Notes: generated by a model not told the origin, from the letters alone. Numbered from the stretch's first letter, positions 467 to 50,626 are shown. The stretch is 64,000 nt of DNA from [Clostridium] symbiosum (GCA_021769625.1 JAETSN010000009.1:3052-67051); one strand, 5' to 3'. Made by a program: numbers and translations.

Positions 467-676
467 GTTAGCACCTCAGCCAGCAGCGAGAATCATAAAA
501 TCCTCAAGGAGCCCTTTGAAAAACGCCGGCACAATTAGCAAATGTGAAATTTAAAAGGCAAAATTTCACATGGTATCTCACGAGCTTAGTGTCCGCTGCG
601 TTATTTCACAGGCTCTTGCAAAACAGAGCCGGCGAGAGCGTGGCGACGGAGGATTTTATGATTCTCGCTGCGTCCG
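467..676 (-). repeat. Structured intergenic repeat, copy 1 of 4 (with two extra internal hairpins)
   Basis: Perfect 23-bp inverted repeat 483-505/649-671 enclosing the core AAGGAGCCCTTTGAAAAACG...GCGAGAGCGTGGCGACG shared with 7011-7167, 23521-23667 and 50451-50626. Confidence 0.92.
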
Positions 677-690
677 GTTCCAACACCCCC

Positions 691-1917
691 TTATCCTCCC
701 CCCGGAAAAGAAATCAAAAATGTGCTTCCGCTCCCCTCCTCACTCTCCGCACTGATCGTTCCCCCCTGTCCTTCCACAATAGATCTGGCAAGGGAAAGCC
801 CCAGCCCTATGCCCTGACTGCTCTGGCTGCCCTTACTTCTGTAAAACCGCTTGAAAATATGGTGGATATCCTCTTCCGATATCCCCTCCCCCGTGTCCTT
901 TACCATAAAGCGCGTCATAAGAGGCGTCTGTTCCCATGATATGGTGATCCTATCCCCTTCTTCTGTATGGTCCAATGCGTTTTTCACGATATTCCCGAGA
1001 GCTTCCCTGCTCCACTCCATATCGCACCGCACCTTCGCCTTCTCTTCCCCGGACAGGATTATTTTCTTGTTTTCCTTCTTCGCCCTTTCCTCCAGTTCTT
1101 CCAGCGCCTGCATGACAAGCTCGGACGCGTCAAAAAGCTTCCTGGAGAAAGAAATATTTCCCGCATCCAGCCTGGTGATCTTCAAAAGAGAGCTGATCAG
1201 CCCCTCCATCCTCAGCAATGCCGTCTCGGATTTTTTCGCAAAGGTGATGACCGTTTCAGCCCTGTCCGCCTCGTTTATCATGATCTCCTGATACATGGAC
1301 AGCGCCGCCAGCGGTGTTTTCAGCTGATGGGAAATATCCGAGACCGTGCTTTTCAAAAATTCTTTCACCTGATTTTCCGTCTCATGCTTTGTTTTCAGCA
1401 TAGCCGCCATAAAATTGATGCCGGAAAACAGTTGGTACAATGTACCCTCGTAAAGTTCCGGAAGCCTTGCGGAAAAATCATTGTCCGTGTAGCTTTCCAC
1501 TATCCCGATCGCCGTCCTGTATATATCGTCCCTTTTTTTCAGATATCGGAAAACACTCGCAAAGATCAGTATAAAAAACAATGCGCCGCACAAAGAGACG
1601 ATCGTTCTTTCTGCAGCGCAAAACCGATAAACCTCCGGCATAAAACGGATATCCGTATTTTCCGACATACCGGCCTGATATAAAAGCATCTCCCCGGATG
1701 CAAGGGGCTCTTCGGACAGCACCGCTTTCGCCACAACCTCCTTCTCGATCCCCTGTTCCAGCAGAAAAGAGGCGATCGCCGCATCATGCCGAAACAGCAT
1801 ATTCCGCATCCTGCTCTCCCTGTATCCTGTCAGCACCAGTCCTGTCACTGCCGCCAGAACGAAAATGCAGCACATCTGTGCCAGAAAAATCCCGGTATGC
1901 TTTTCTTTCCAAAACAT
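691..1917 (-). CDS. Sensor histidine kinase (HisKA/HATPase_c)
   Basis: H-box ISHQLKTPL, N-box NIVKNALDH, G boxes DTGEGI and GIGLGLS; two N-terminal hydrophobic segments. Confidence 0.95.
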   Translation of the reverse strand: MFWKEKHTGIFLAQMCCIFVLAAVTGLVLTGYRESRMRNMLFRHDAAIASFLLEQGIEKEVVAKAVLSEEPLASGEMLLYQAGMSENTDIRFMPEVYRFCAAERTIVSLCGALFFILIFASVFRYLKKRDDIYRTAIGIVESYTDNDFSARLPELYEGTLYQLFSGINFMAAMLKTKHETENQVKEFLKSTVSDISHQLKTPLAALSMYQEIMINEADRAETVITFAKKSETALLRMEGLISSLLKITRLDAGNISFSRKLFDASELVMQALEELEERAKKENKKIILSGEEKAKVRCDMEWSREALGNIVKNALDHTEEGDRITISWEQTPLMTRFMVKDTGEGISEEDIHHIFKRFYRSKGSQSSQGIGLGLSLARSIVEGQGGTISAESEEGSGSTFLISFPGGG

Positions 1918-2606
1918 TATATCTCCACCTCATTCCATCGGTATCCGAGGCCTCTCACCGTTGTCAGGCGTCTTGGGCTGGACGGATCTTCCTCTATTTT
2001 TTCCCGCAGCCGCCTGATATAGACGGAAAGCGTATTGTCATCCACAAAATTGCCGCCGCTGTCCCAGAGTTCCTCCAGGATCATATTTCTTGTCACGACA
2101 ATGCCCTCATTTCGGACCAGCAGACAGAGCAGGCGGTATTCCGCCCCTGTCAGCTCCAGTATACTGCCGCCGCGCAGCACCCGTCCCTTATCCAGTTCTA
2201 TCGTGATCTCTCCCGACTGCAGCAGGTTTCTCTCCTTACCGGAAAGCCCGGCCCGGCGCAGGAGCGCATGGATCCTGGAGCAAAGTTCCCCCAACCTGAA
2301 AGGCTTTGTCACATAATCGTCCCCGCCGCCGTCGAGTCCCCTGACAACGCTCATCTCGTCGTCCGCCGCCGTCAAAAAAAGGATCGGCACCCGGCTGCCC
2401 TCCCCGCGCACGGCTTCGCATATTTCGAAGCCCGTCCCGTCGGGAAGCGCCACATCCAGCAGCAACAGGTCAAATTTCTGTTTCAGGCATTCCCTCGCCT
2501 CCCTGACGCTGCCGGCGACCTCTATCTCATATCCGTTTTTTGTGAGGGCATACTGCAGCCCGTCCACCAGGGCGGCGTCGTCCTCCAATAATAAGATCCT
2601 GCTCAT
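1917..2606 (-). CDS. OmpR-family response regulator
   Basis: ILLLEDD, LLLLDVALPDG, DDYVTKPF, C-terminal TVRGLGYRW winged helix; abuts the kinase gene. Confidence 0.95.
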   Translation of the reverse strand: MSRILLLEDDAALVDGLQYALTKNGYEIEVAGSVREARECLKQKFDLLLLDVALPDGTGFEICEAVRGEGSRVPILFLTAADDEMSVVRGLDGGGDDYVTKPFRLGELCSRIHALLRRAGLSGKERNLLQSGEITIELDKGRVLRGGSILELTGAEYRLLCLLVRNEGIVVTRNMILEELWDSGGNFVDDNTLSVYIRRLREKIEEDPSSPRRLTTVRGLGYRWNEVEI

Positions 2607-3091
2607 AAAAATATTCCTATGATCCGCTGTATAAAGTTATAGAGCATATTGTGCCGGTATAAAAAATCAAGAAATCTGTTTGCGGTGATCAGCGTGACAA
2701 GCGGCTCCCCGTTTATCGGGATATTCAGACAGGATATCACGGCAAAGCCCACCCAGATCACCACTGTCGCCTCGATCACGCCAGCCAGTGTTCCCAGAAA
2801 TTTATTCAACCAGTTTAAGAGCGGCAGTTTGGCGATCAGCCCCAGAGAGCAGAACACCATCCTGATCACCTTTCTTGCGATCAGGATGACAAGCAGGATG
2901 ATCCCTGACACCAGAAAGCCAATCAGGTTTTTCCCCAGCACGGACTCGATCACGATGATCCCCGACACCACCATGGCGGAAACGATGACCGTATCCGCCA
3001 GCGCTCCCACCTCATCGATCAGCCCGTTGCGAGAACCATTGAAGATCCTCCATATGTAGATCAATATCACAATTCCCAAAACAATATACAT
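2603..3091 (-). CDS. CvpA-family membrane protein
   Basis: Multi-TM protein with NGxRNGLIDE and LNKFLGTLAG motifs typical of CvpA. Confidence 0.7.
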   Translation of the reverse strand: MYIVLGIVILIYIWRIFNGSRNGLIDEVGALADTVIVSAMVVSGIIVIESVLGKNLIGFLVSGIILLVILIARKVIRMVFCSLGLIAKLPLLNWLNKFLGTLAGVIEATVVIWVGFAVISCLNIPINGEPLVTLITANRFLDFLYRHNMLYNFIQRIIGIFL

Positions 3092-3108
3092 GTTACTCTG
3101 TTCTTCCT

Positions 3109-4287
3109 TTAATTCAGTTCTATCTCGTCAATGGAATCCTGGCTCACCAGCGTAAATTTCCTGACGGAATCCCCGGGCAGCAGAAGGCTGATGCTCTTAT
3201 CCATCGTCCCGTTAAATTTCTCCACGCCGGAAAAGCTGTAGATACAGCATTCCGCCTCTCCGTAAATATAAATATTCTCCCCTTTCAGGACCACATTCCG
3301 GTACTCCGTGTCAAAGCCCTGGCTGAGACAGTTCTTCCCGGTACTGTCATAGACATTTATCATATATTTACTGCTTCCCGTCGTATCATATGACACCAAT
3401 GCCACATATGTTTCATTATGATAGATCGAGCGTACCTCTCCTTCCAGCATCACTTCCGATTTGCTCACAGGCTTCTGGGCTCCCTCGTAAAACGCCAGTC
3501 TGTCGTCCGCCACCGCAAACGCCAGCTCGGAAGTCATAAAGCACACATAGGGGACCACCGACGGATAATTATAGCCGCTCATGTAATTGTCCACCTCGTT
3601 TTGCCCGACTTCCCCGAAATTATAGAAAGCCACGCTGGATTTCACCGCCCCCTCCTCCTCGGAGATATAAGATACCATGGCAAGATTGCTGTTCGGCGAG
3701 AGGGATATATTGATCGGATAGCCAAACTGGCTCATAGTCGTCTTAAAGCGGATCGCGATCTCTCCCTTGCTGTTATAGAGGTAGATCCATGTGATGTCCG
3801 AGTCGTCCAGCACCGCCGCGACCACACCGTTCTCCGCCACCGAGAGCGCCCTGATCGGCATATTGGTCGCGATCTCTCCCAAAATGCCCTGCATGTTCAT
3901 CACATAGATATTTCTTCCGTTGTAATCCCCGAAAGCGATCGTTGTATTGCTGACCGCAACGATCGGGTCCTGCATCTCATAAGTTTCATTCCAGATCGCC
4001 TTTCCCCTCGCATCAAAACAGCTCGCGCCGTCATTGCTGTATGTCAGGATATAGTCCCCGAGAGCAATAGTCTTCGCGTTGGAAGATACATTCCTCTCAT
4101 AGCTGTCCGTTGTCGTATATTCTGTATAAACCCTGTTTTTCTGGGTGATCCAGACTGCTGCCGCCACCGCTGTCATGAGCACTATGATAAGCGCACCCTG
4201 ATATAACCTGTGAAGCCGATGTTTGACGATCTTGTCCGAGTAGTGTTCTCTTTTCGAACCTTCCGGCTTTTCCTTTCTTTTAAACAT
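3109..4287 (-). CDS. Membrane-anchored beta-propeller-like protein (DUF5711-like)
   Basis: One N-terminal TM helix followed by repeated beta-strand units. Start set at ATG 4287 (RBS AAAGGTGG) rather than 4356. Confidence 0.7.
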   Translation of the reverse strand: MFKRKEKPEGSKREHYSDKIVKHRLHRLYQGALIIVLMTAVAAAVWITQKNRVYTEYTTTDSYERNVSSNAKTIALGDYILTYSNDGASCFDARGKAIWNETYEMQDPIVAVSNTTIAFGDYNGRNIYVMNMQGILGEIATNMPIRALSVAENGVVAAVLDDSDITWIYLYNSKGEIAIRFKTTMSQFGYPINISLSPNSNLAMVSYISEEEGAVKSSVAFYNFGEVGQNEVDNYMSGYNYPSVVPYVCFMTSELAFAVADDRLAFYEGAQKPVSKSEVMLEGEVRSIYHNETYVALVSYDTTGSSKYMINVYDSTGKNCLSQGFDTEYRNVVLKGENIYIYGEAECCIYSFSGVEKFNGTMDKSISLLLPGDSVRKFTLVSQDSIDEIELN

Positions 4288-4482
4288 AGTTCCACCTTTT
4301 TTCATCTGCAGCCATGCCGCGGGAAAAACGCCCGGGCTGATAACTTTTCTAATCATAGCACATCACCATGCCTTATTCAAATTTTTTCTGCAAAGCCATC
4401 TATGACAGAGCCGGACACCGCGAAAATAATAAGATCCTCCGGTGCCAACTTAATGACATTGCGACTGATCTGTTAACCGAAA

Positions 4483-4511
4483 AAAGGATATGGCGATCTG
4501 CCATATCCTTT
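4483..4511 (-). terminator. Intrinsic terminator after galM
   Basis: 12-bp stem AAAGGATATGGC/GCCATATCCTTT followed by a U-run on the minus strand. Confidence 0.8.
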
Positions 4512-4555
4512 GTAATGTTTTCACTCTCTATCTTTTGTTTTTCAGCCGCCTGCTC

Positions 4556-5605
4556 TCAGACATTGCAGAACCTGTATACCGTGCTGGATGTGTACTGTCT
4601 GTCCGGTCCGAATACTGTATCCGGAAAGTTTTCCCTGTTCACGGAATCCGGGAAGAACTGTGTCTCCAGAGCCAGTCCGCATCTGTCGTGGTATTTTACG
4701 CCCGATTTGCCGTCCTGTTCCCCGATAAAGTTTCCGGCGTAGAACTGGATGCCCGGCAGAGTTGTATAAACTCTCATCACCCTGCTCGTCCCCGGCGCCG
4801 TGACTTTTGCCACAAGCTGAAGCTGTCCGTCCACATCATCCAGCACCCAGTTGTGGTCATAGCCGCCTCCGATCCGAAGCTGTTCAAAATCTGTGCCGAT
4901 CTCCTCCCCGATCGTCTTTGCCTTCGTAAAATCCATGGGTGTTCCCGCCACGGGAGCAATCTCCCCGGTGGGAATGGAACCCGCCGCCGTAGGGGTGTAA
5001 CACGAAGCCTTCAGCCAGAGCACATGGTCCTCTATGCTGCCGCCGTCCTGTCCCCTCAAGTTGAAATAGCTGTGGTTCGTGGGATTTAAAACAGTCCGCT
5101 TATCACTGGCAAAATGATAATCCAGCCTCAACTCATTTTCATCCGTCAGTGTATAGGTCATTTCCAGCCTTCTGTTTCCCGGGAACCCCATAGAACCGTC
5201 CTCATCCTGCAAGGACAGTTTTATGCTGTTTCCGCCCTCCTCCACGCTGAAAACCCTTACATGATATCCTTTTTCCCTGTCGCTGTGCAGATTATTTCCA
5301 TTTTCATTTGCCGGAACCTGATACTGCGTGCCGTCGATCGTAAACTTTGCCCCGCCGATACGGTTTGCGTTCGGTCCCACGGCAGCGCCCAAAAACCCCG
5401 GATTCTCAAAATATGGCTCCAGCGTATCGTGCCCCAATACCACATCCGCCGCTTTCCCGTCCTTATCAGGCACCCACAGCTCCCGTATGATCCCGCCGTA
5501 ATTCAGGATCTTGGCGCACATGCCGTTTTTATTTTCAATGCGGTATTCATAGACCGCTTTGCCGCTCTTTTTATCCGTTCCGAATACTTTTTTTGTAAGG
5601 CTCAT
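4556..5605 (-). CDS. galM: Aldose 1-epimerase (galactose mutarotase)
   Basis: GPNANRIG, NNLHS, LNPTNHSYFNL, GYDHNW and LETQFFPD motifs. Confidence 0.95.
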   Translation of the reverse strand: MSLTKKVFGTDKKSGKAVYEYRIENKNGMCAKILNYGGIIRELWVPDKDGKAADVVLGHDTLEPYFENPGFLGAAVGPNANRIGGAKFTIDGTQYQVPANENGNNLHSDREKGYHVRVFSVEEGGNSIKLSLQDEDGSMGFPGNRRLEMTYTLTDENELRLDYHFASDKRTVLNPTNHSYFNLRGQDGGSIEDHVLWLKASCYTPTAAGSIPTGEIAPVAGTPMDFTKAKTIGEEIGTDFEQLRIGGGYDHNWVLDDVDGQLQLVAKVTAPGTSRVMRVYTTLPGIQFYAGNFIGEQDGKSGVKYHDRCGLALETQFFPDSVNRENFPDTVFGPDRQYTSSTVYRFCNV

Positions 5606-5748
5606 TTCATTCTCCTGTTATTCCGGTGCCGCACAGGCTCTTCCGGCGCGCCCTGTCCACGGCGCTTCCAGCCGGGCTTATGCCGTCTTAGCTGATCGTT
5701 GTTTCGTTTTTGTATACCGCTTACTTCATTTTGTGCCGTAACTGCCGC

Positions 5749-6345
5749 TCACAGTTCCACTCTGCCCTCCAGGGCACGCAGCAGCGTCACTTCATCAATA
5801 TTCTCCAGATCGCCGCCCACCGGCACGCCGCTGGCGATCCTCGTCACTTTGATCCCTGTGGGCTTCACGAGTTTGCTGATATACATCGCCGTGGTCTCCC
5901 CCTCCAGAGAGGAATTCGTCGCAATGATCACTTCCTCTATATCGCCCTCCAGCCGTACCATCAGTTCCTTCAGCCTGATATCCCCCGGCCCGATCCCGAG
6001 CATCGGGGAGATACAGCCGTGGAGCACATGGTAGACGCCCTCGTATTTTCCGGTTTTCTCGTATGCCGCCAGGTCTCTGGGGTTCTCCACCACCATAATG
6101 AGCCTGTGATTCCTGTGCGGGTTCTCACAGACCGGACATTTCTCCCGGTCCGTCAACGTATAGCACTCCTCACAGTAGCGGACATTGTCCCTCGCCTCCA
6201 CGAGCGTTTTTGCCATCCGGTCCACACGGTCCTTCGGCATATTGATGATATAAAACGCCAGCCGCTGTGCCGACTTTTCCCCGATGCCCGGAAGAGACGC
6301 CAGTTCATCGATCAGTTTATTGATATGGCCACTGTACAGTTCCAT
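5749..6345 (-). CDS. recR: Recombination mediator RecR
   Basis: LPGIGEKSAQRLA HhH motif, C4 zinc finger (CEEC...CPVC), TOPRIM region EVIIATNSSLEGETTA. Confidence 0.98.
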   Translation of the reverse strand: MELYSGHINKLIDELASLPGIGEKSAQRLAFYIINMPKDRVDRMAKTLVEARDNVRYCEECYTLTDREKCPVCENPHRNHRLIMVVENPRDLAAYEKTGKYEGVYHVLHGCISPMLGIGPGDIRLKELMVRLEGDIEEVIIATNSSLEGETTAMYISKLVKPTGIKVTRIASGVPVGGDLENIDEVTLLRALEGRVEL

Positions 6346-6686
6346 CAGAAAGGCAGGCCTCCTGTCATCTTGCCCATCAGTTCACTGTTCGCCGCCTCCG
6401 CCTGTTTCAGCGCTTCGTTTGCCGCCGCCATGATCATATCTTCCAATGTCTCGATGTCCTCCGGGTCCACCGCCTCTTCCGAAAGTTTGATCTTCGTGAT
6501 CTCCTTCTTGCCGGTAACGGTCACTTCCACGGCGCCGCCGCCCGCTTTCGCCGTAAATTCCTTTGTCTCCAGCTCTTTCTGGTTCTCCTCCAACTGGCGC
6601 TGCATCCTCTGCGCCTGCTTCATCAGATTGTTCATATTTCCGGGCATACCCATCATGCCGCCCGGAAAGCCGCCTCTCTTTGCCAT
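6345..6686 (-). CDS. ybaB: YbaB/EbfC nucleoid-associated protein
   Basis: MNNLMKQAQRMQ, AGGGAVEV, DPEDIETLED; canonical position between dnaX and recR. Confidence 0.95.
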   Translation of the reverse strand: MAKRGGFPGGMMGMPGNMNNLMKQAQRMQRQLEENQKELETKEFTAKAGGGAVEVTVTGKKEITKIKLSEEAVDPEDIETLEDMIMAAANEALKQAEAANSELMGKMTGGLPF

Positions 6687-6733
6687 ATCTGCTCCTCCAT
6701 CTGACCGCCTTTACAATTTCTTATGATACACTG

Positions 6734-6880
6734 TCAATCTTCCAGTGTCTGCTGCAGATTATCTGCCACTTTTTGCAGCTTTTCTTTTTCTTTACCATCC
6801 GCCATGTTTTCAAGTACTTCCCTGATATCATCCAATACAAATCTTACAAAACCTTTGAATTGACCGTCTGTCATCCCCAT
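6734..6880 (-). CDS. Small hypothetical protein, 48 aa (below the ORF-track cutoff)
   Basis: RBS GCAGGTG then ATG at 6880: MGMTDGQFKGFVRFVLDDIREVLENMADGKEKEKLQKVADNLQQTLED; amphipathic helical pattern. Confidence 0.65.
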   Translation of the reverse strand: MGMTDGQFKGFVRFVLDDIREVLENMADGKEKEKLQKVADNLQQTLED

Positions 6881-7010
6881 ACGATCACCTGCTTTCTATA
6901 TTCAGACTTATCTGCCACACCATAACTATATCACAGCTTTTGCGGAAAGTCTATTCTAACGGCAGATTATCTCCATCGGAGAATAACAGTTCAGCTTTCT
7001 ATATTATTTA

Positions 7011-7167
7011 GTTAACACCTCAGCCAGCTGGTAAGAACATAAAATACTTAAGGAGCCCTTTGAAAAACGCCGGCACTTAGCGAGGTATTTTCGAGCTTAG
7101 TGTCCGCTGCGTTTTTCACAGAGCGAGAGCGTGGCGACGAAGTATTTTATGTTCTTACCAGCGTCCG
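7011..7167 (-). repeat. Structured intergenic repeat, copy 2 of 4 (minimal form)
   Basis: Perfect 23-bp IR 7027-7049/7140-7162; inner IR TGAAAAACGC/GCGTTTTTCA. Confidence 0.92.
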
Positions 7168-7208
7168 GCACCATTGTCTAAATAACATTGTAAGCCGAAC
7201 TGTTACAT

Positions 7209-8789
7209 CTACTCCTCCTCGATCTCCATATGGATAACCTCCCCCAGATCCGGATAATTCATATCCATCCTGCTCTCATCCGCCTCCAGTTCCAGCCGCA
7301 CCTCTATCTGTTTTCCGATCATGCCGGAAATGCTTTCCTCCAGCTCCGTTTTGTGTTCCTGCGTGGAAAGCCAGTCATAGTGCGTGCTGTCCGAAACGAC
7401 CAACATCAGCCGGTTCTCGTCGTCCATACTCAGCCTTGCGCTGCGCAGATAGGTTTTCATCGGTTGTCCGATATGATTTAACAGGCTTCCCCACCTCTCC
7501 ACGACCTGCCTGATATCTTCAGGGATCGCTGCCGGGAGCGGCGCCTTCCTGACATTTGTGTCACTTCCGGCTGTGCATGTCTGCGCCGTGTTTCCGGATG
7601 CCGGAGCCTGCACGCTCTGCAGCGGAATCCCGTTTTCCATTTTTCGCTCCAGCGTCCTGATCCTGTCGGATAAGGATGCCGTGTCGGTCTCCATCTGAGG
7701 GCGGCAGAGTTTGATCAGCGTCATCTCGATCATGATCCGTTTCTGCACTGAGAGGCGGAGCTGCCCGGAAAGCTCGGAAAGCACCCGGATATAGCGCATG
7801 ATCGTCTCCATGTCCGCCATCTGTGCTTCTTCCTTCAACTTTTTCAGATTGTCGGAAGAAACGTCTATCACATCCTCCATATCTCCCGCATCCGAGGTTT
7901 TCAGCAGCAGGAGGTTCCGCAAATACCATGTGAAATCCGCCACAAACTGTACAAGTTCCCGCCCCTGCATGATCACTTCCTCCAGCAGGGCGATGCAGCC
8001 CGGCACATCCTGTGCCAGAACCTTGCGGAGCAGTCCGCTGAACACATCCGTATCTACGGCCCCCAGCACCTCAAGCGCCCTGTCATAGGTCAGTTCCTGT
8101 CCGTAATAAAACGCAATGCACCGCTCCAAAAGGCTCAGCGCATCACGCATGGAACCGTCGGCGGTTTTGGCGATATACCTGAGCGCCCGCTCCTGCACCT
8201 GCACCTCTTCCTTTTCCATCAGTTCCCTGAGCCTGTCCGCGATCGTCTCAATGGAGATCCTCTTAAAGTCGTACCGCTGGCAGCGGGACAGTATCGTGAT
8301 CGGTATCTTATGCACTTCCGTCGTCGCCAGAATAAAGATCACATAGGACGGGGGCTCCTCCAGCGTCTTGAGGAGGGCATTGAACGCCGCCGTGGAGAGC
8401 ATATGCACTTCATCTATGATATAAACTTTATATTTTCCCTCCGCCGGAGAATAGGAAATATCCTCCACGATCTCCCGCACATCATCCACACCGTTGTTGG
8501 ATGCCGCATCCATCTCGATCACATTCATGCCGGTCCCCGCCAGAATATTTTGGCAGGCGGCACATTCCCCGCAGGGACTGCCGTCCACGGGATTTTCACA
8601 GTTCACCGCCCTGGCCAGGATCTTTGCGATCGTCGTCTTTCCGGTTCCCCTCGTCCCCGTAAACAGATAGGCGTGACCGATCCGGTCCGCCCTGATCTGG
8701 TTTTTCAGCGTTGTGACAATATGTTCCTGCCCCTTTACGTCCTCGAAACATAAGGGGCGGAATTTACGGTAGAGCGCTGTATATGACAT
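7209..8789 (-). CDS. dnaX: DNA polymerase III subunit gamma/tau
   Basis: Starts MSYTALYRKFRP (ATG 8789, RBS GGAG); GTRGTGKTT, Zn-binding CENP...CGEC..C, IIDEVHML, SRCQRYDF. The ORF-track extension to 9095 is not supported. Confidence 0.98.
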   Translation of the reverse strand: MSYTALYRKFRPLCFEDVKGQEHIVTTLKNQIRADRIGHAYLFTGTRGTGKTTIAKILARAVNCENPVDGSPCGECAACQNILAGTGMNVIEMDAASNNGVDDVREIVEDISYSPAEGKYKVYIIDEVHMLSTAAFNALLKTLEEPPSYVIFILATTEVHKIPITILSRCQRYDFKRISIETIADRLRELMEKEEVQVQERALRYIAKTADGSMRDALSLLERCIAFYYGQELTYDRALEVLGAVDTDVFSGLLRKVLAQDVPGCIALLEEVIMQGRELVQFVADFTWYLRNLLLLKTSDAGDMEDVIDVSSDNLKKLKEEAQMADMETIMRYIRVLSELSGQLRLSVQKRIMIEMTLIKLCRPQMETDTASLSDRIRTLERKMENGIPLQSVQAPASGNTAQTCTAGSDTNVRKAPLPAAIPEDIRQVVERWGSLLNHIGQPMKTYLRSARLSMDDENRLMLVVSDSTHYDWLSTQEHKTELEESISGMIGKQIEVRLELEADESRMDMNYPDLGEVIHMEIEEE

Positions 8790-8892
8790 CTGTCTTTTCT
8801 CCATTCCAGTTCCGCAAAAATCCTCCCAGCACACTTGAGCGGAAGACAATTTCCAGCCGCCGTGCGTCTGTAAATCGTCTTGTGCGCTGTCC

Positions 8893-8957
8893 GGATTTCT
8901 GCTGTTTCCAGTTCCGCAGATATTTTGGATTTCTGCTGTTTCCAGTTCCGCAGATAT
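8893..8957. repeat. 31-bp tandem direct repeat (two exact copies, 34-bp period) in the dnaX leader
   Basis: GGATTTCTGCTGTTTCCAGTTCCGCAGATAT at 8893-8923 and 8927-8957. Confidence 0.9.
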
Positions 8958-8980
8958 CCCAATACCTGCTGTCTTGAAAA

Positions 8981-9009
8981 TCCCGCAGCCACCCTCTGCG
9001 GCTGCGGGA
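8981..9009 (-). terminator. Probable intrinsic terminator after pfkA
   Basis: Stem TCCCGCAGCC/GGCTGCGGGA followed by a short U-run on the minus strand. Confidence 0.6.
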
Positions 9010-9112
9010 CTCTTCCTGCAATTTCTATCCTCAACAAACACCATTAAGCCACTATCCCAACCAGCCGTGAGAATCAACCTAATGGCATTTATCATAAACT
9101 TATTTTCAGATC

Positions 9113-10186
9113 TTAATCACCGAAGCTGATGCCCAACAGTTTTGCCTCCTGAATGATATCGGAATCCGGCTCAACCATCTTCAGCTTGCCCGCAACATCT
9201 TCCAGAGGAACTTTTACGATCTCACGGTTCTTGTAGCCCACCATGAAGCCATATTCGCCGTTTAAGATCATGCGGCCTGCCTGCGCGCCGAGACGGCTTG
9301 CAAATACACGGTCGTAAGGGCAGGGGCTTCCGCCTCTCTGCGTGTGGCCGGGTACCGTGACACGCACATCCAGGCCGGTCTTTTTCTGAATCTTCTCAGC
9401 GATCTCATAGGAAACAGAGGGATAAGGATACTCTGCCATTTTCTTTTTATATTCTTTCTTGGAGAGTGCCGCATCCTCCTTGGAGATAGCGCCCTCCGCC
9501 ACTGCCAGGATCGTAAACTTGCTTCCTCTCTCGGAACGTTTGTTAATCGCCTCCACAACCTTCTTAATATCATAAGGAATCTCAGGGATCAGGATGATAT
9601 CCGCTCCGCCCGCCATACCTGCGTTCAGCGTCAGATAACCAACCTTATGGCCCATAACCTCCACGATGAACACACGTCCGTGGGAAGCCGCCGTAGTATG
9701 TATGCAGTCGATGCAGTCCGTCGCGATGTTCACTGCGCTCTGGAAACCAAACGTCATATCCGTGCCCCAGAGGTCATTGTCGATGGTCTTCGGCAGCGTC
9801 ACGATATTCAGCCCTTCTTCACGCAGCATATTCGCTGTCTTGTGGGTTCCGTTGCCGCCCAGGATCACAAGGCAGTCCAGACGAAGCTTATAGTAATTCT
9901 GTTTCATGGCCTCCACCTTGTCAAGCCCGTTCTCATCCGGCTCTCTCATCAGTTTAAAGGGAGTTCTGGAGCTGCCAAGGATTGTGCCGCCCTTTGTCAG
10001 GATACCGGAGAAGTCCGCCCCTGTGAGCATTCTGAAATTGCCGTAGATCAGTCCCTTGTAGCCCTCTAAAAAGCCATAGATCTCCACAGGTTCTCCGCTG
10101 TAGGATAAACTTTTTACCACGCCTCTCATTGCCGCGTTCAGTGCCTGACAATCTCCACCGCTGGTAAGCATACCGATTCGTTTCAT
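9113..10186 (-). CDS. pfkA: 6-phosphofructokinase (PfkA family)
   Basis: TSGGDCQALN, GGTILGSSR, ILGGNGT, PKTIDND, VEVMGH, GHTQRGG motifs. Confidence 0.95.
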   Translation of the reverse strand: MKRIGMLTSGGDCQALNAAMRGVVKSLSYSGEPVEIYGFLEGYKGLIYGNFRMLTGADFSGILTKGGTILGSSRTPFKLMREPDENGLDKVEAMKQNYYKLRLDCLVILGGNGTHKTANMLREEGLNIVTLPKTIDNDLWGTDMTFGFQSAVNIATDCIDCIHTTAASHGRVFIVEVMGHKVGYLTLNAGMAGGADIILIPEIPYDIKKVVEAINKRSERGSKFTILAVAEGAISKEDAALSKKEYKKKMAEYPYPSVSYEIAEKIQKKTGLDVRVTVPGHTQRGGSPCPYDRVFASRLGAQAGRMILNGEYGFMVGYKNREIVKVPLEDVAGKLKMVEPDSDIIQEAKLLGISFGD

Positions 10187-10311
10187 TTGATTTCCTCCTT
10201 CATACTGTTCATTTTTGCCATTTCCCGATCACCCGCAAAGTCCATTTGCCGTCAGCTTACGGCTGCTTATGCACCCTTAAGCCACATGATACTCGCAGTA
10301 AAGCTGCTCGT

Positions 10312-10359
10312 TAGCTTACGAAGTTCGCCCTTGCAAGCAAGCGAACTTCTTGTAAGCTA
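10312..10359. repeat. Imperfect long inverted repeat in the pfkA promoter/leader region
   Basis: TAGCTTACGAAGTTCGC (10312-10328) pairs with GCGAACTTCTTGTAAGCTA (10341-10359) with a small bulge. Confidence 0.8.
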
Positions 10360-10477
10360 CATTATAGTATATTTTTCCTGTCATCACAAGATTTTATTCT
10401 GCCGAAAAATCATGGAATTTTTCATGCAATATTTTGGAAATATCATTTAACCACCCGACCTGAAACTATTTAGGAAG

Positions 10478-11806
10478 TCATCTTTTTACCAAGATATTTT
10501 TTGTCATCCAGACCAGATAAAGCGGAATACTGTATGTCTCTGTTTTCTCCACCATATTTCTCCCAATATTTTTCATCGAAAATTTAAATCCTGCCTCCGG
10601 CTCATATTTTTTGCAGAATTGCCGGTAGCTTTTCGCCCTCGTGTGAAGTTCCGTCTTCGCCTCCACCGGAATGATCTTATCTTCATACTCAAACAGGAAA
10701 TCCAGTTCGGCCACATTCCCTGATCTCCAGAAATAAGGCCTTATATCCAGCGCTGTCAGTTCAGTCAGCACAAAGTTTTCTGTAAATGCCCCTTTAAAAT
10801 TCTTATACAACTCCGAATCTTCCAAAATCGTTCTGGCAGAGACTCCGGATTTTCTTCGAAGCAGCCCCACATCCGCCATATAGACTTTAAAAAAAGCCGC
10901 ATCCGCATAGAATGACAGCGGAAGTTCCGGATTTTTCGCCAGCTCCAGACGATAGACCAGCCCCGCATCCGTGAGCCATTCCAGCGCATCCTCCAATTCA
11001 CCTGACCGTTTTCCTTCTTTTACATGGGAAAATACAAATTTATTGTTGTCTTTCGCCAATTGTTTCGGAACGGAGTCCCATATCCATCCCAGTTTTGGAA
11101 TATCCGTTTTGGGCGCATGCTTCGCGAAGTCGTTTGTGTAATCAAGCAGAATATTGTCCTGCAGTCTTTCCACTTCCTCAACGATATGCGTCTGCGTCCA
11201 TTTTGCGACAGCCTCCGGCATCCCTCCGACAATATAATAATATTTCAGCTTTTTCTCCAATGCAGACGTATACAATTCCGGCAGTTCCCTCTCCGCCCCA
11301 TATCTCTGAACGCCTTCATAGAGAGCCTCCCCGCCGTCCGCCCTCAGAAATTCCGAAAATGTCATCGGATACATCCTGAGCCTGTCAACTTTTCCGACAG
11401 GGAATGATATATTGTCCCTTTTTACTGCCACACCCAACAGAGAACCCGCACAGATCACATGCAGCTCCCGCCTGTTCTCGCAAAAATATTTCAGGGAAGT
11501 GACCGCATTGGGACACGCCTGGATCTCATCGAAGATCACCAGAGTTTTTCCCGGTATGATCTCCTTCCCCCTGACAATATTGCCCAGTTCATCCAAAATT
11601 CTGTCAATATTATAATCATAGTCAAATACCGAAGAGAGCCCTTTATTCCCCTCAAAACTGAAATAAGCGGTGTCCTCAAAGTATCTCTCCCCGAACTCTT
11701 TGCAGACATAAGTCTTCCCGCACTGCCTCACACCGATGAGCAGCAACGGTTTCCTGTCCGTCCTGTCTTTCCACTCCACAAGTTTTTGCATGATATCTCT
11801 CTTCAA
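10478..11806 (-). CDS. AAA+ ATPase with DUF4143 and C-terminal PD-(D/E)XK-like domain (paralogue 1)
   Basis: GVRQCGKT, IFDEIQ, CAGSLLG, MYPMTFSEFL, YYIVGGMPE, ELDF...IPVEAK; TTG start at 11806 with RBS AAGGAGG. Confidence 0.88.
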   Translation of the reverse strand: MKRDIMQKLVEWKDRTDRKPLLLIGVRQCGKTYVCKEFGERYFEDTAYFSFEGNKGLSSVFDYDYNIDRILDELGNIVRGKEIIPGKTLVIFDEIQACPNAVTSLKYFCENRRELHVICAGSLLGVAVKRDNISFPVGKVDRLRMYPMTFSEFLRADGGEALYEGVQRYGAERELPELYTSALEKKLKYYYIVGGMPEAVAKWTQTHIVEEVERLQDNILLDYTNDFAKHAPKTDIPKLGWIWDSVPKQLAKDNNKFVFSHVKEGKRSGELEDALEWLTDAGLVYRLELAKNPELPLSFYADAAFFKVYMADVGLLRRKSGVSARTILEDSELYKNFKGAFTENFVLTELTALDIRPYFWRSGNVAELDFLFEYEDKIIPVEAKTELHTRAKSYRQFCKKYEPEAGFKFSMKNIGRNMVEKTETYSIPLYLVWMTKNILVKR

Positions 11807-11990
11807 ATCCGTCCTCCTTACGCCGCTTTGCCATTCCCTGCACATCCGGTTTCTGTAATATACAGTTTACCACATTTCTCCCCGAATTGCAGAAAAATGC
11901 AATAATTCATATGAATTTTTACATTTATTTTGTATTTTTCATATGAACAAACGCATTCTCGATAAAATATTTGATGCCTCAAAATATTAT

Positions 11991-12019
11991 TTGACTGTTT
12001 CGCCTTAAGCCGTTATAAT
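11991..12019 (+). promoter_or_regulatory. Sigma-A promoter of tRNA-Ser
   Basis: TTGACT (11991-11996), 17-nt spacer, TATAAT (12014-12019). Confidence 0.85.
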
Positions 12020-12032
12020 AGTTACAGCTTTT

Positions 12033-12120
12033 GGAGATGTACCCAAGTGGCTGAAGGGTCCGCACTCGAAATGCGGTAGGTCGGGCAACCGGCGCGAGAG
12101 TTCAAATCTCTCCATCTCCG
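12033..12120 (+). tRNA. tRNA-Ser (anticodon CGA)
   Basis: Acceptor stem GGAGATG/CATCTCC, anticodon arm CCGCA-CT-CGA-AA-TGCGG, long variable arm, T-loop GTTCAAATC; CCA not encoded. Confidence 0.97.
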
Positions 12121-12122
12121 TC

Positions 12123-23434: not shown

Positions 23435-23520
23435 CTATACTCCTGACTCTCTATACCTAAACCGCACATTTTCATCTAAAATCTCAACAACATGTCCACC
23501 ACTCAAATAATAGCCACTGC

Positions 23521-23667
23521 CAACCACCAGCCCGGTTCCATAATATTCCTGAAGGAGCCCTTTGAAAAACGTCGGCACTTGGCGAGGTATTTTCGAGCCT
23601 AGTACCGCTACGTTTTTCACAGAGCGCAAGCGTGGCGACGCAGGAATATTATGGAACCGGGCGTCCG
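23521..23667 (-). repeat. Structured intergenic repeat, copy 3 of 4 (most diverged)
   Basis: Perfect 22-bp IR 23530-23551/23641-23662 with a different arm sequence; compensatory change in the inner stem (TGAAAAACGT/ACGTTTTTCA). Confidence 0.9.
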
Positions 23668-23685
23668 AATTTTTCACTATCCATT

Positions 23686-24090
23686 CTACCTGTATTCCCG
23701 CAAAACCTCAACCGGTTTTAACCTCTTTTTGCATGTATGCCGTCTCTTATACACTTCATAATACAACAAAATCTGCACCATCTCCTCTATCCAGGCCCAT
23801 TTTTCCTTTGAAATCTCTTCCTTCTCGTCCGCCGCTTCCCTCTTTAAGATTGCCATAACGCTCTGGCAGAGCTTAAACATCTGCCATCTGCAGGGATACT
23901 CGTCATAGATCAGGCTGCCGTCATAATCTATCTTATCCAATACCGCCGCAATTCTCTTCTGGTATTTTTTTGCATCAGCCGGATAGAGCTGCTGCATATA
24001 TTCCAGATCCTGTATCATGGCTTCCTCCTCCTGCCCGCATAGAGGAAGCGGATAGATCATATAAAAGGGTAAAACATTATCTCTTGACAT
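23686..24090 (-). CDS. Hypothetical protein, possibly sporulation-associated
   Basis: 134-aa ORF with RBS GAGGTG; preceded by an ACA-16 nt-CATATGCT sigma-K-like promoter. Confidence 0.75.
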   Translation of the reverse strand: MSRDNVLPFYMIYPLPLCGQEEEAMIQDLEYMQQLYPADAKKYQKRIAAVLDKIDYDGSLIYDEYPCRWQMFKLCQSVMAILKREAADEKEEISKEKWAWIEEMVQILLYYEVYKRRHTCKKRLKPVEVLREYR

Positions 24091-38561: not shown

Positions 38562-38751
38562 AACTGTACCGGGCAGCCTGTTGCAGCCGCCCTCCGTAAG
38601 CGGCGATGAAGCCGGGTCTTACGCAATGGAAATCTGTGAACCGTGTCAGGTTGGGAACAAAGCAGCACTAAACAGAACCTTTCATGTGACGTAAGGAAGC
38701 CTGGCGGAGCAGGCTGCGGGGGTAACGTGCAGCGGGCTGCCGGGTACAGTT
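38562..38751 (+). ncRNA. ffs: Signal recognition particle RNA
   Basis: Domain IV motif GTCAGG-TTG-GGAA-CAA-AGCAGC within a Firmicutes-like S domain; the ends AACTGTACC and GGTACAGTT pair. Confidence 0.93.
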
Positions 38752-41811: not shown

Positions 41812-41943
41812 GATTTTGTCGATCCTTTCTCCGTATCCTCTTTTATCCTTTATATTTTTTCTCATACTCACTTTATATTTGGTATTTCCGCCGGCGAATT
41901 AAAAATCCCTTTCCGCCATGCGGCGCCGTTTATTACTGTGCTC

Positions 41944-43752: not shown

Positions 43753-43763
43753 AATAATTACCT

Positions 43764-44594: not shown

Positions 44595-45466
44595 TACTGC
44601 ATAGCCTCCTCTCTCTTATTCAGGAAATGCTGCAGCGGGAATGCGATCACAGAGATCAGAATAAGCATCACTACATTGCCTGCCGTCGAAAGCCCATAAA
44701 AGCCAGCCGCATACTGCTTATAAATGACAGATGCCAGAACGTCCGTCGAGAATCCGGGGCCGCCGCCCGTCATCGCCCAGATCAGGTCGAAAGAACGCAA
44801 GCCGCCGATCAGGGACAAAATGATGATGGAATTCTGGGACGGAGCCACAAGCGGAAGCGTGATATTTTTTAACTGCTGCCACCATGTCGCCCCATCGATG
44901 GATGCAGCCTCATAATATGTCTTGTCAATGGACTGAATACCCGCAATATAAATTACCACCGATATCGAAAGGCCCTTCCAGACATCTGTCAGGATAATAC
45001 TTGCGAGCGCCGTACTCGGGTTCCCCAGAAAGTCGATGGGCGTCCCGCCGAGTGCCTGAATCGCCACATTAAAAAGCCCCTTGGTCGGATGCATCATGTA
45101 GGAAAAAGCAAGGCCGACCGCCATCATGGAAACCAGGTTCGGGAAAAACACAGCGGAACGGATAAATCCTTTTGTCTTGATCTTGCTGGTCAGAAAAATA
45201 GCAATGAAAAATGCAATGACCACTTTCAGGGCGCTGGTTCCGAACGCGTAGATCAGAGTATGTACCACGGAAGAGCTCATAGAGTGTTCGGAAAAGAAAA
45301 GTTTATAGTTGTCAAGTCCGCAAAATTTTGCCGTATCAAAATTCCATACGGTCAGACTGTAATACAGGGATGTCACAATCGGCCACAGGAAAAAAATACC
45401 GAAAATAATCAGGGACGGGAGAGCAAACCAAACGGGATATATACCGCGTTCCTTTTTGGTCTTCAT
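44594..45466 (-). CDS. Carbohydrate ABC transporter permease
   Basis: YYEAASIDGA, FDLIWAMTGGGPG; start ATG 45466 (RBS AGGAGG). Confidence 0.95.
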   Translation of the reverse strand: MKTKKERGIYPVWFALPSLIIFGIFFLWPIVTSLYYSLTVWNFDTAKFCGLDNYKLFFSEHSMSSSVVHTLIYAFGTSALKVVIAFFIAIFLTSKIKTKGFIRSAVFFPNLVSMMAVGLAFSYMMHPTKGLFNVAIQALGGTPIDFLGNPSTALASIILTDVWKGLSISVVIYIAGIQSIDKTYYEAASIDGATWWQQLKNITLPLVAPSQNSIIILSLIGGLRSFDLIWAMTGGGPGFSTDVLASVIYKQYAAGFYGLSTAGNVVMLILISVIAFPLQHFLNKREEAMQ

Positions 45467-45543
45467 TATAAAACCTCCTATCAATGAGTGGCCGCCCGAT
45501 ACTGTCAGACGGCCACATTATCATGTTCTCTTATATCGGAATG

Positions 45544-46917: not shown

Positions 46918-47024
46918 AATTTTAAATCCTCCTTATTTTTTGTTTTTCAACATGGTTTTATTTTATCTGCCGAAAAATAAAAAGTACATGGAGGATACAA
47001 CACAAAACAATTGAAAATCTGAAA

Positions 47025-48527: not shown

Positions 48528-48671
48528 CGTTCCGCCTCCTTTTTTCCGTCTCTCTCTTATATTTATCATATCAGCTGTATCCTGACAATCCTTACTTTTA
48601 TAAGTGAAATACTTGTGCAAGCACGGCACTTGCCTATTGCCAAGCTTGCCTGGCATTTTGCTCGCGGAAAT

Positions 48672-48726
48672 AAAACCGGGAGAGATGTAAAGCCGGTTCA
48701 AATAACTTTACACCTCTCCCGGTTTT
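48672..48726. terminator. Long hairpin (21-bp arms) downstream of the DUF6128 gene, probable terminator
   Basis: AAAACCGGGAGAGATGTAAAG / CTTTACACCTCTCCCGGTTTT, one mismatch. Confidence 0.75.
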
Positions 48727-48769
48727 CTGCTGCCGTTTCCCGGGCCAAAAAACCATGCCCAAAAAGCAG

Positions 48770-50302
48770 TTATATCTCCACCCTCCTAAGATAATACCCG
48801 AAATCTCCGTTCTCCGCCGGTTCCCGTTTCCCGTCAAAGGCCTCGAACCCGAACATCACCGCCACAGTCTTCTCTCTCTCGTGGAAAGTGCCCGGCACGC
48901 CCAGATAGTAGACTGCCTCGCCGTCCTTTTCCCTCCTTCCCAGAATCAGATGTTTATAATTGTAATAGCCGTGCAGCAGGAAGCTGTTATGTACCAGCTC
49001 CTGATACTTTTCCGTGAAGATCACAAAATCTTTCGGCGCAATCTTCAGGTACTCCTCCTCCTCCCGGATCGGATGCACCACAGGATAGGTCTTTCTCAAC
49101 TGTTCCCATTTATCGGGCCGCAGTTCCCGTTCGGCGGGCCGTATCTCCTCCATAGCCTCCGGCGCATCTTCTCTTTCTCCCTCTTCCATTCCCTGCAGGA
49201 TTTCCTCCTCCAACGTCTGTTCCGGCTGCCCCGGCTGTTTTATCTCGGCTGATCCTCCTGCCCGCAACGGCTGTACCACTTCCGCCTCTTCTCTCAAAAT
49301 TTTTCTCTCCAGCATCTCCTGCATGGATTCCTCTTCATCTGACGGCTTCTCTGATATCGCTCCTACCACTTCCGTTACCGGTTTTTCTTTTCTCCTGCCT
49401 GCCGGGACCGCCTGATTCTCTGCCGATTCTGCCCGATTTTCTGTTGTTTCCGTAGAATTCTCTTCCGGAATCGCTGTGGTTTTCTCTGTATTTCCCCCTC
49501 TCCCATCCATTATGATAAAACCATCCTCTGTCTCAAATTCTTCCATCTCGTCGATGTCGATCACCGGTATTTCCCTCGCCACCTTCTCAACCCGGGATTT
49601 TTCTGACACGGGTGTCACTATCAGGCTGACTTCCACAGGCGCATCATCCGCCGCTTCACCCATGCTGTTCTGACGGCCACCCGCCAACGCGCTGCCATAT
49701 CTGCCTTCTGGTGCCGCGCCGTCTTTGCCGTCCCATCTGCTTCTTGCCGCCGCATCATCTTTGCCGTCCCATCTGTTTTTTATCGCCGCATTGCCGTTAT
49801 TCCCCTCCCGGCGCTGCATATGGCCTGCATCTCCTCCATCCTGCCGCTGTATACGGCCCGCATCTCCTCCATCCTGCCGCTTCCTCTCTCCCGGCATAAA
49901 ATTCACCACCGTCCACTGCGATTCCAGATACTGATACTCATGCAGTTCGATCTTAATGCCGCAGACCTCGTCATAGCGCAGCCCGGAATCCGCCATATTT
50001 TCCGCATGCAGCCGCACCGCACAATAGCCCTGTCCATTTCGGATAGCAAGAGTCCCCAACAGATGTTTCTCCTGATCATTTTTCCGGCTCTCCTGATAAA
50101 GATCCGCCCCCTTCTTCTTCCCCGGCATTTCCGAGAGCAGATATACCCTCGCCTCTCCGCTTCCCATCAGCCTCGGCCCTTTCACATAAACGATCATCTG
50201 GCAAAGGCTGTCCCTCACCTGAAATTTCACATAGCCGGCATTCTGCAGTTTTATGCCGCTTTCATAATAACTCAGATATCTGATCCTTTTATCATAATAC
50301 AA
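48770..50302 (-). CDS. DUF6128-like protein with a low-complexity central region
   Basis: N-terminal YLSYYESGIKLQNAGYVK; C-terminal NSFLLHGYYNYKHLILG...YYLGVPG...FGY; acidic, repetitive middle. Confidence 0.75.
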   Translation of the reverse strand: MYYDKRIRYLSYYESGIKLQNAGYVKFQVRDSLCQMIVYVKGPRLMGSGEARVYLLSEMPGKKKGADLYQESRKNDQEKHLLGTLAIRNGQGYCAVRLHAENMADSGLRYDEVCGIKIELHEYQYLESQWTVVNFMPGERKRQDGGDAGRIQRQDGGDAGHMQRREGNNGNAAIKNRWDGKDDAAARSRWDGKDGAAPEGRYGSALAGGRQNSMGEAADDAPVEVSLIVTPVSEKSRVEKVAREIPVIDIDEMEEFETEDGFIIMDGRGGNTEKTTAIPEENSTETTENRAESAENQAVPAGRRKEKPVTEVVGAISEKPSDEEESMQEMLERKILREEAEVVQPLRAGGSAEIKQPGQPEQTLEEEILQGMEEGEREDAPEAMEEIRPAERELRPDKWEQLRKTYPVVHPIREEEEYLKIAPKDFVIFTEKYQELVHNSFLLHGYYNYKHLILGRREKDGEAVYYLGVPGTFHEREKTVAVMFGFEAFDGKREPAENGDFGYYLRRVEI

Positions 50303-50450
50303 AACCCCGTTTCCTCCTTTAGACAGTCATTTTTTAACATGCTTCCTATTGACCATCTTATGAGAAAACGGGGCTCCGTATTCCTGTTTATTTTATTTGT
50401 TCTTTCTTCATTGCACCGTATCGAACCAACTTCGCCTCGCCATATTATTT

Positions 50451-50626
50451 GTTAGCACCACAGTCAGCAGATAAGAACATAAAATGCTTAAGGAGCCCTT
50501 TGAAAAACGCCGGCACTTAGGCAAATGTGAAAATTTCACATGTACTTTAGCGCCTTATGTGTCCGCTGCGCTTTTCACAGAGCGAGAGCGTGGCGACGTA
50601 GTATTTTATGTTCTTACCTGCGTCCG
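50451..50626 (-). repeat. Structured intergenic repeat, copy 4 of 4
   Basis: 22-bp IR 50467-50488/50600-50621 (two non-Watson-Crick positions); same core; mini hairpin ATGTGAA-AAT-TTCACAT at 50525-50541. Confidence 0.92.

Follow-up and report, generated by a model that had tools for sequence, protein, structure and literature searches.

A hairpin element with a conserved branched core, probably a family of nested miniature transposons, dispersed in Lachnospiraceae genomes

The bcr1 and related repeats of the Bacillus cereus group are about 155 bp long, resemble transposable elements of the miniature inverted-repeat type (MITEs), have a predicted conserved RNA structure and are associated with the target duplication TTTAT. 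ERIC/IRU of the Enterobacteriaceae and Correia/NEMIS of Neisseria are hairpin-forming MITEs located in transcribed intergenic regions, and the BOX elements of Streptococcus pneumoniae have a modular boxA-boxB(n)-boxC organisation (PMC3049150). Repetitive extragenic palindromes (REPs) are 20-40 bp long and carry GTAG or CGTC tags (PMC3733652); doublets of these, the REPINs, are mobilised by REP-associated tyrosine transposases (RAYTs) (PMC3116915). The CGTC-tagged REPs have a CGTC head and a CCA tail, have no dedicated transposase and are not reported in Firmicutes (PMC3733652). Here we describe a repeated hairpin element present in four copies in a stretch of 64,000 nucleotides from [Clostridium] symbiosum (JAETSN010000009.1:3052-67051, that is C97:3052-67051 of genome G000; called the window below). 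G000 is a draft metagenome-assembled genome (MAG) of 4.08 Mb in 145 contigs.

The four copies probably belong to a family of nested hairpin-shaped MITEs of Lachnospiraceae. Like ERIC/IRU and Correia/NEMIS, the element is a short non-coding imperfect palindrome with terminal inverted repeats (TIRs), lies next to stop codons and inside operons and would form a long hairpin when transcribed; orientation-dependent effects are known for those families. Their ends are conserved and their fold is a simple rod, whereas the present element conserves a three-way junction in its interior that includes a GNRA mini-hairpin, leaves its long stem free to vary and can have as many as two nested TIR shells, which differ in duplication length. 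The likeness to BOX lies in the Firmicutes hosts, the high copy number, the intergenic location, the variable number of internal hairpin modules, the extensive secondary structure and the lack of a convincing transposase partner. The two share no sequence similarity, however, BOX has neither a covarying closing stem nor a GNRA junction, and it is confined to a few streptococci while this core occurs in 55 of the 151 Lachnospiraceae genera sampled. REPs and REPINs also form hundreds of hairpin repeats behind genes, maintain the hairpin as a population and carry foot tags of the tetranucleotide type, but REPs are about 10 times smaller than this element of 150-260 bp, with its branched core, its target duplications and its lack of association with single-tyrosine (Y1) transposases. 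Relative to CGTC REPs the tags are arranged in the opposite way, with CCA at the 5' side and CGTCC at the 3' side. bcr1 is likewise a MITE-like Firmicutes repeat with a predicted structure; its sequence is unrelated and its target duplication different, and to our knowledge it has no three-way junction with a GNRA mini-hairpin.

The element itself is real and well supported, is of the hairpin-MITE kind and is not catalogued in Rfam. BLAST and nhmmer searches of G000 identified about 203 loci in 4.08 Mb, 143 of them near full length, representing about 1% of the genome; this bears out the high copy number that a first-pass annotation of the window had anticipated from four copies in 64 kb. The copies are dispersed and fall into size classes of about 158, 178, 190, 196 and 209 nt which differ by apex hairpin modules. 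Several G000 contigs start or stop within a copy. According to BLAST the element is present in 11 of the 12 other species of the genus; other genomes are designated by G numbers below, and the close relatives are uncultured Lachnospiraceae MAGs from animal guts. Across the family, a covariance model (R1) returned the matches in 55 genera mentioned above, mostly full-length (80-150 bits). Up to 19 matches were scored per genome in this survey and the copy numbers there are therefore minima. No Rfam family, including Clostridiales-1 (RF01699), gave a covariance-model match: none reached the gathering score in the window and none appeared at E <= 10 for copy 2 and its flanks. Neither plasmid nor phage collections contained similar DNA, and no description of the element was found in the published literature.

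The core, read on the + strand, is a three-way junction composed of P1 (a 23-bp stem of free sequence), a short closing helix P1b (GC.C with GGC), an irregular conserved inner hairpin (P2'-P4) and a mini-hairpin of two pairs, GC[NNNN]GC, capped by a GNRA loop. The covarying stem of 22-23 bp by which the copies had first been recognised would correspond to P1, closing the junction of P1b, the irregular hairpin and the GC[GNRA]GC mini-hairpin. When this structure was scored over 34 G000 copies, 98.1% of the cells were paired compared with 84.3% after shuffling and 40-53% in slid controls, and changes on both sides were observed in 32 of the 49 pairs. Up to four Watson-Crick types occur at a position of P1, and the isolated 3-bp P1b shows G-C to A-U (three sequences), C-G to U-A and C-G to G-C changes. 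In a larger set of 98 copies the arms retain 21.5 of 23 Watson-Crick pairs compared with 15.8 +/- 0.28 when partners are shuffled among copies, in agreement with the covariation originally reported. The unpaired junction strands are, as also reported, better conserved between copies (86-89% identity) than the arms (68%). The compensatory C>T/G>A pair noted in the inner stem of copy 3 recurs throughout the genome (column pair 64-106: CG 17, UA 17).

The same architecture is found in other genera. Across 17 genera, in an alignment (A3) that was fitted to the model, 97.4% of the cells are paired compared with 63.0% after shuffling, and 45 of the 49 pairs are compensated. P1b is there a Watson-Crick helix of 4-6 bp (for example CAGAC/GTCTG, CAGTC/GACTG or GAGAAC/GTTCTC), and covariation is also seen in both closing pairs of the mini-hairpin (three changes of GC to AU and one of CG to UA). 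The stem formed by an A-run and a T-run is swapped for other pairs, such as GCAAC/GTTGC or CACGCC/GGCGTG, in G082, G046, G174, G094 and G041. A GNRA loop caps the mini-hairpin in 127 of 128 G000 copies (GAGA 59, GCAA 29, GCGA 25, GAAA 12) and in every genus inspected, and in the main G000 family a tandem G.A (GGAG/CGAC) extends P1b. The GNRA loop and the tandem G.A make sense on the + strand only. The branched fold is under selection, and its conserved unpaired or irregular parts are a plausible recognition site for a protein, as had been suggested for the loop. The earlier proposal that selection acts on the fold of a sense transcript or of single-stranded DNA is retained for the single-strand fold and not for the sense transcript, since the strand-specific motifs lie on +. 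Its observation that mismatches read mainly as minus-strand G-U wobbles did not extend to the whole genome, where arm mismatches comprise 35 G.T on + and 20 A.C and the totals over all helices are symmetric; assigning the strand by G.U versus A.C counts was accordingly given up, as it reveals no preference.

The arms are surrounded by further inverted repeats which constitute one or two TIR shells. These were missed by the first-pass annotation, which had delimited the core correctly and fell short of the full extent, most clearly at copies 2 and 4 (Table 1). The outer shell, GTAACAGTTCAGCC...GGCTGAACTGTTAC, bounds complete elements of 224-226 bp with 8-bp target-site duplications, of which three perfect cases occur in G000 (AACCGTTG, TTTTTCAG and CTGCTCCG) and two in G001. 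The same outer TIR bounds a 141-bp MITE in G001 (duplication AATCCGGC), a second G000 family whose arms abut the TIR, and one copy in another genus. The middle shell, CAATGTCATTTAG...CTAAATGACATTG, also written CAATGTCATTTAGTTAAC...TTAACTAAATGACATTG, is flanked by direct repeats of 9-10 bp, five of which are perfect (TTCCGCCCG, ATTCAGCCT, GTTCAGCCC, ACTATTTCTG and GTTCATCCGC). TIRs are recognisable in a minority of the copies only. A third potential boundary, GTTAACACC...ATTAAC, was rejected because no target duplication occurs there. Two reduced forms are also present. A 32-bp minimal element in G001 (L061, G001:C56:54142-54173) is built from nothing but the two outer TIRs and a TTTC loop and has a flanking repeat of 8 bp, so that the TIR pair alone appears sufficient for insertion. 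In G000, C22:about 22034-22105 has the arrangement AACAGTTCAGCC-CCATTTAGTTAACACCTCAGC|GTCCGCCGCCATTAACCAAATGC-GGCTGAACTGTTAC, a shell without arms or core; either the hairpin was lost precisely between CAGC and GTCC, or the shell is an unoccupied one.

Comparison of orthologous sites across 12 genomes of the genus, and across conspecific contigs defined as those encoding identical flanking proteins, revealed variation. The site of copy 1 is empty in G007, G008 and G001, the same three genomes lack copy 2, and the 227-bp insertion of copy 4 is missing from all seven relatives aligned (G007, G012, G005, G008, G001, G003 and G010); together with the 8-bp and 9-10-bp duplications, these are the empty sites and duplications that the first-pass annotation had proposed to look for. 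At the site of copy 3, G007 keeps the 22-bp arms with the core deleted, G005 and G008 carry hairpins of 10 and 7 bp derived from the outer part of the same arms, G006 has half an element and G012 a remnant of a different arm subfamily. The core is also gone from this site in all six conspecific contigs aligned, five of which retain a 7-bp remnant hairpin and one (L143) none; by gene calls the spacer measures 60 nt in 9 of the 10 contigs returned and 8 nt in the tenth. Deletion derivatives keeping pieces of the junction occur in G000 as well. Small CA-hairpin-GTCC hairpins are not enriched (8 versus 0-10 in controls); small CCA-hairpin-GTCC hairpins were on this ground rejected as the primary element or as an insertion target, and the short alleles are read as deletion remnants rather than target sites. 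Old copies decay by central deletion. At the dnaX-ybaB site of copy 2, near-identical strains have three alleles which differ in arm subfamily and shells, including different subfamilies or recombinant halves at one site. The occurrence of different subfamilies at one and the same site suggests that copies exchange sequence or that elements re-insert.

TIRs, target duplications (8 bp; 9-10 bp), insertion polymorphism, decay by central deletion and a short, dispersed, non-coding sequence together amount to MITE behaviour, and the element is mobile non-coding DNA. Individual loci are lost fast and there is no host-level constraint on each locus.

The genomic context was examined for the 143 near-full copies using a crude call of genes based on open reading frames (ORFs). 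Of these copies, 93 lie between co-directional genes, 23 between convergent and 18 between divergent genes, 3 within an ORF and 6 at contig edges, and the convergent, tandem and divergent shares (the last 13%) equal the background of all intergenic regions. Orientation is not random, a point on which the first-pass annotation had made its sense-RNA model depend: in co-directional regions the minus strand is sense for 77 copies and the + strand for 16 (p about 1e-10), leaving + antisense to the neighbouring genes in 83%. The GCGTCCG side is a median 18 nt from the upstream stop codon, which often falls within the shell, whose motif TTAACTAAAT carries stop codons. When replication direction is deduced from GC skew, the ratio is 71:11 for leading-strand genes, 6:5 for lagging-strand genes (11 copies only) and 26:15 for convergent and divergent sites combined.

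An autonomous element ending in the same TIRs was sought in G000 and its relatives, but none was identified. Where two TIRs lie 0.3-6 kb apart in G000, the intervening genes are ordinary ones and include no transposase, and TIR scans of the genus, G012 and G041 returned MITE-sized pairs only. IS66 (PF03050) and PF13751 were not found in G000; IS66 was discarded as a partner because the G007 copy ends in GTAAGCGTCAAATCC, which is not the MITE TIR, and the IS1182-like loci of the genus because they carry neither of the two TIRs. Draft MAGs often lose insertion sequence (IS) copies, and the absence of an autonomous IS is therefore weak evidence. The only Y1 transposase gene of G000 (C105:445-801) belongs to an ordinary IS200 and is flanked by unrelated small hairpins, so that the suggestion of a copy next to a Y1 or RAYT gene was not borne out. 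This single IS200-type element (C105:270-960; Y1 transposase, 161-aa frame) comes with small hairpins of its own. Its end, CCCCAGCTCTGCTGGGGGATTTATA, also adjoins a repeat copy at the start of C24 (~80-115), after a similar ATGAAACAG target, and the IS200 copy number may be under-assembled in G000.

For a MITE family, the most plausible scheme would be cut-and-paste movement in trans by a DDE-type transposase whose gene lies elsewhere, outside these draft genomes, in line with the earlier view of a non-autonomous element with a mobiliser acting in trans. The fold would be kept since only lineages that keep it go on multiplying. It would be needed in cis for the propagation or persistence of the element, serving the element and not the host, most likely as a single-stranded + strand recognised by a protein, and DNA-level exchange between copies may help the arms to stay matched. 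The orientation bias would arise after insertion, copies with the structured + strand in mRNA or on the lagging-strand template probably being purged more often. Several observations weigh against this interpretation, in addition to the missing autonomous partner and the different ends of the IS66 and IS1182-like copies of the genus. Ordinary MITEs conserve their ends, whereas the conserved part is here the interior. Most copies have no recognisable outer shell, and clear target duplications are restricted to about a dozen. For a cut-and-paste element whose ends are symmetrical, an orientation bias of 77:16 is unusual. Finally, arm integrity is not lower where the shell has decayed (rho 0.125, p 0.22), which simple insertion followed by decay does not predict, and which points to maintenance in place, to copies exchanging sequence or to a core that moves separately. 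A reading that we consider unlikely makes the three-way-junction core, closed by the free 23-bp stem, the functional unit itself, either as a structure-specific recognition module for a mobilisation or maintenance machinery that is neither Y1/RAYT nor the TIR-binding transposase, or as a structured RNA of a new class which has spread into several transposon shells across Lachnospiraceae; the shells would then be vehicles and the core the replicator.

Other explanations give the fold a role in RNA. The element might be a cis-acting RNA of the 3' untranslated region, cotranscribed with the upstream gene, whose minus-strand fold is selected by the host as a terminator or mRNA stabiliser. The predominance of the minus strand as sense (83% of the co-directional copies) and the proximity of the GCGTCCG side to the upstream stop would suit such a role, as would the G000 inner hairpin, which resembles a bidirectional terminator in its flanking A-run and T-run, and a G000 stem extension, GCCCT/AGAGC, in which a conserved C.A of the + strand becomes a G.U on the minus strand. 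The covarying P1b and mini-hairpin pairings, however, take the place of this extension; in other genera ordinary covarying pairs stand where G000 has the T-run, the + strand is the one that bears the GNRA loop and tandem G.A, and the wobble statistics favour neither strand. Moreover, a simple terminator scan of the stretch 1-12000 does not flag copies 1 and 2, the only ones it contains; an intrinsic (bidirectional) terminator was rejected on this result and on the U-tract, which is not conserved in other genera, the A- and T-runs being one covarying stem. The 13% of copies in divergent promoter regions, equal to background, and the loss or reduction of loci between strains also speak against the sense-RNA model of the first-pass annotation, which we regard as rather improbable. 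A role for the opposite strand, as an independently functional RNA (a new ribozyme or protein-binding RNA) spread secondarily by transposon shells, seems slightly less probable again. It would account for the three-way junction with its GNRA-capped mini-helix, tandem G.A and conserved bulges, for the compensated pairs across genera, for a core that stays constant while shells change and for the lack of an Rfam match. Against it, most copies have the + strand antisense to the adjacent genes, no conserved promoter-like flank is seen, and many conserved bases are located within helices, not in a single-stranded core of catalytic type; about 200 copies per genome and rapid loss at each locus are equally hard to reconcile with it. 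In addition, mini-hairpins of the d(GCGNRAGC) type, studied by Hirao et al. in the 1990s, and tandem G.A are reportedly stable in DNA too.

A REPIN- or PATE-like element, a single-stranded DNA hairpin moved in trans by a Y1 HUH enzyme (RAYT or IS200/IS605 TnpA) with the foot tags CCA...GCGTCC as cleavage signals, is very unlikely. In its favour, conserved unpaired tags (CCA at the 5' side, (G)CGTCC at the 3' side) mark the foot of the long hairpin in roughly half the genera, arm integrity does not depend on the shells, the orientation bias could be tied to replication and G000 does encode one Y1 transposase. There is also the resemblance to CGTC-tagged REPs with CCA tails and no known transposase (PMC3733652), in which the tags are nevertheless arranged the opposite way. 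The local context of the Y1 gene does not fit, since it is that of an ordinary IS200 with unrelated hairpins. Over the 151 genomes, Y1 genes are found in 30 of the 55 with the element compared with 62 of the 96 without it, and four near-complete genomes with many copies (G033, G105, G108 and G156) have none. On context and co-occurrence the RAYT hypothesis was rejected, and the RAYT or IS200 mobiliser proposed earlier is further disfavoured by the 8-10-bp target duplications. In addition, the leading-strand template would mostly be the one that carries the GNRA motif, the reverse of the situation in IS608-type elements, and small CA-hairpin-GTCC hairpins are, as mentioned, not enriched. In short, the Y1 gene of G000 is not flanked by the repeats, Y1 genes are not co-distributed with them, and tags, size and duplications differ from those of REPs and REPINs. 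Least probable of all is that there is no functional fold and that complementarity is a by-product of template switching at palindromes and gene conversion between copies. Strand-symmetric mismatch spectra, alleles of one site with different subfamilies or recombinant halves, and the presence of different arm families at the same site in G000 and G012 are in keeping with such processes. They leave unexplained the covariation in the isolated 3-bp P1b and the 2-bp mini-helix, the restriction of the loop to GNRA and the family-wide excess of conservation in the junction over the arms.

Lachnospiraceae are among the most abundant gut bacteria, and an element that directly follows stop codons, occurs within operons such as dnaX-ybaB-recR and varies from strain to strain has practical consequences: MAG assemblies break at it, gene ends become blurred, and the 3' ends of genes and the expression of operons can be altered. 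It could also provide a strain-typing marker for uncultured gut Clostridia. As a natural experiment in structure conservation, it has 45 of 49 pairs compensated and yet no Rfam family. It reverses the ordinary logic of MITEs, conserved ends and a free interior, and whether bacterial MITEs can carry self-serving structured modules would become clear from what reads its core, be it a transposase domain, a host protein or nothing.

The four window copies (Table 1) were all returned on the + strand by a covariance model built on other copies, confirming the co-oriented set first described, and are also picked up by a direct-repeat scan of the window. Their common order is leader, arm, AAGGAGCCCTT, inner stem TGAAAAACG, variable apex, CGTTTTTCA, GAGCG-NNA-GCGTGGCGACG, second arm and GCGTCCG. 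The arms differ between copies and are perfectly complementary in copies 1, 2 and 3 (23, 23 and 22 bp), as had been noted, while those of copy 4 have one A.C, one G.T and one T.T mismatch. The gene to the right of each copy is on the minus strand, with its stop codon 14, 41, 18 and 44 nt away for copies 1 to 4 respectively, matching the distances of 14-44 nt given before; these genes encode a histidine kinase, DnaX, a protein without Pfam match and a PucR-type regulator.

Table 1. Positions of the four copies and their parts, counted from the first nucleotide of the window
Feature	Position	Strand	Remarks
Copy 1, core module, long form	467-676	+	covariance model 114.6 bits
Copy 1, additional hairpins	542-571 (apex), 611-630	+	core module, long form
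Copy 1, P1 arms	483-505, 649-671	+	23 bp, perfectly complementary
Copy 1, 5' junction AAGGAGCCCTT	506-516	+	part of core module
Copy 1, 3' tag GTCCG	672-676	+	part of core module
Copy 1, possible full insertion	467-685	.	boundaries uncertain
Copy 1, possible 8-bp target duplication, 6/8 match	ATCCCTTA 459-466, CCCCCTTA 686-693	.	boundaries uncertain
Copy 2, complete nested element, 224 bp	6983-7206	+	model 181.8 bits; core 7011-7167
Copy 2, outer TIR	6983-6996, 7193-7206	+	complete nested element
Copy 2, middle TIR	about 7000-7016, 7177-7190	+	complete nested element
Copy 2, P1 left arm GCTGGTAAGAACATAAAATACTT	7027-7049	+	partner 7140-7162
Copy 2, inner hairpin P3/P4 TGAAAAACGCCGGCACTTAGCG...GCTTAGTGTCCGCTGCGTTTTTCA	7061-7118	+	conserved CU bulge, T.T mismatch
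Copy 2, mini-hairpin GC[GAGA]GC	7123-7130	+	GNRA loop
Copy 2, P1 right arm AAGTATTTTATGTTCTTACCAGC	7140-7162	+	followed by tag GTCCG 7163-7167
Copy 3, core module, no recognisable shell	23513-23667	+	model 152.5 bits
Copy 3, P1 arms	23530-23551, 23641-23662	+	22 bp, perfectly complementary
Copy 4, insertion, 227 bp relative to G007, G012, G005	50437-50663	+	core 50451-50626, 137.1 bits
Copy 4, P1 arms	50467-50489, 50599-50621	+	three mismatches
Copy 4, right outer TIR GAGCTGTTAC	ends 50663	+	part of 227-bp insertion

At copy 1, the putative right duplication includes the TAA stop of the histidine-kinase gene (691-693, minus strand). No clear target duplication was found at copies 2 and 4, and copy 3 is an old insertion. 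Copy 2 is flanked by dnaX (7209-9095, minus strand, its stop 2 nt from the complete element) and ybaB (6345-6686, minus strand), which recR follows in conspecific contigs. The dnaX-ybaB spacer (window 6687-7208) measures 522 nt in G000 and 364 or 333-336 nt in contigs with an identical YbaB; in conspecific contigs (L123-L132) a conserved part of it, about 50 nt upstream of ybaB, contains a called 48-aa ORF (L123 1306-1452) without Pfam hit. Near copy 4, the orthologous locus of G007 (L040, G007:C14:28878-29854; window about 50400-50670) is a tandem array with a unit of about 66 nt, GTAAACCGCACCGTATCGAACCAGCTTCACCTGACGGTTCAGCTGCGGGAAACGCTGCTATTTACTTTC, which holds outer-TIR-like sequences and is also partly present as an array in G005 and G012. 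G000 has a single such unit, within which copy 4 is inserted.

Elsewhere in the window, dnaX contains an exact 31-nt direct repeat with 34 nt spacing (8893-8957), and a DUF6128 ORF (48770-50302) holds degenerate tandem repeats of 33-36 nt (49699-49868). A 134-aa protein without Pfam match (23686-24090), encoded directly downstream of the ATP synthase epsilon gene, is identical in at least 23 public metagenome contigs (index: 40 blocks). An ordinary tRNA with a long variable arm (12033-12120) and an ordinary large bacterial signal recognition particle RNA (38564-38749, 107.6 bits) are also encoded.

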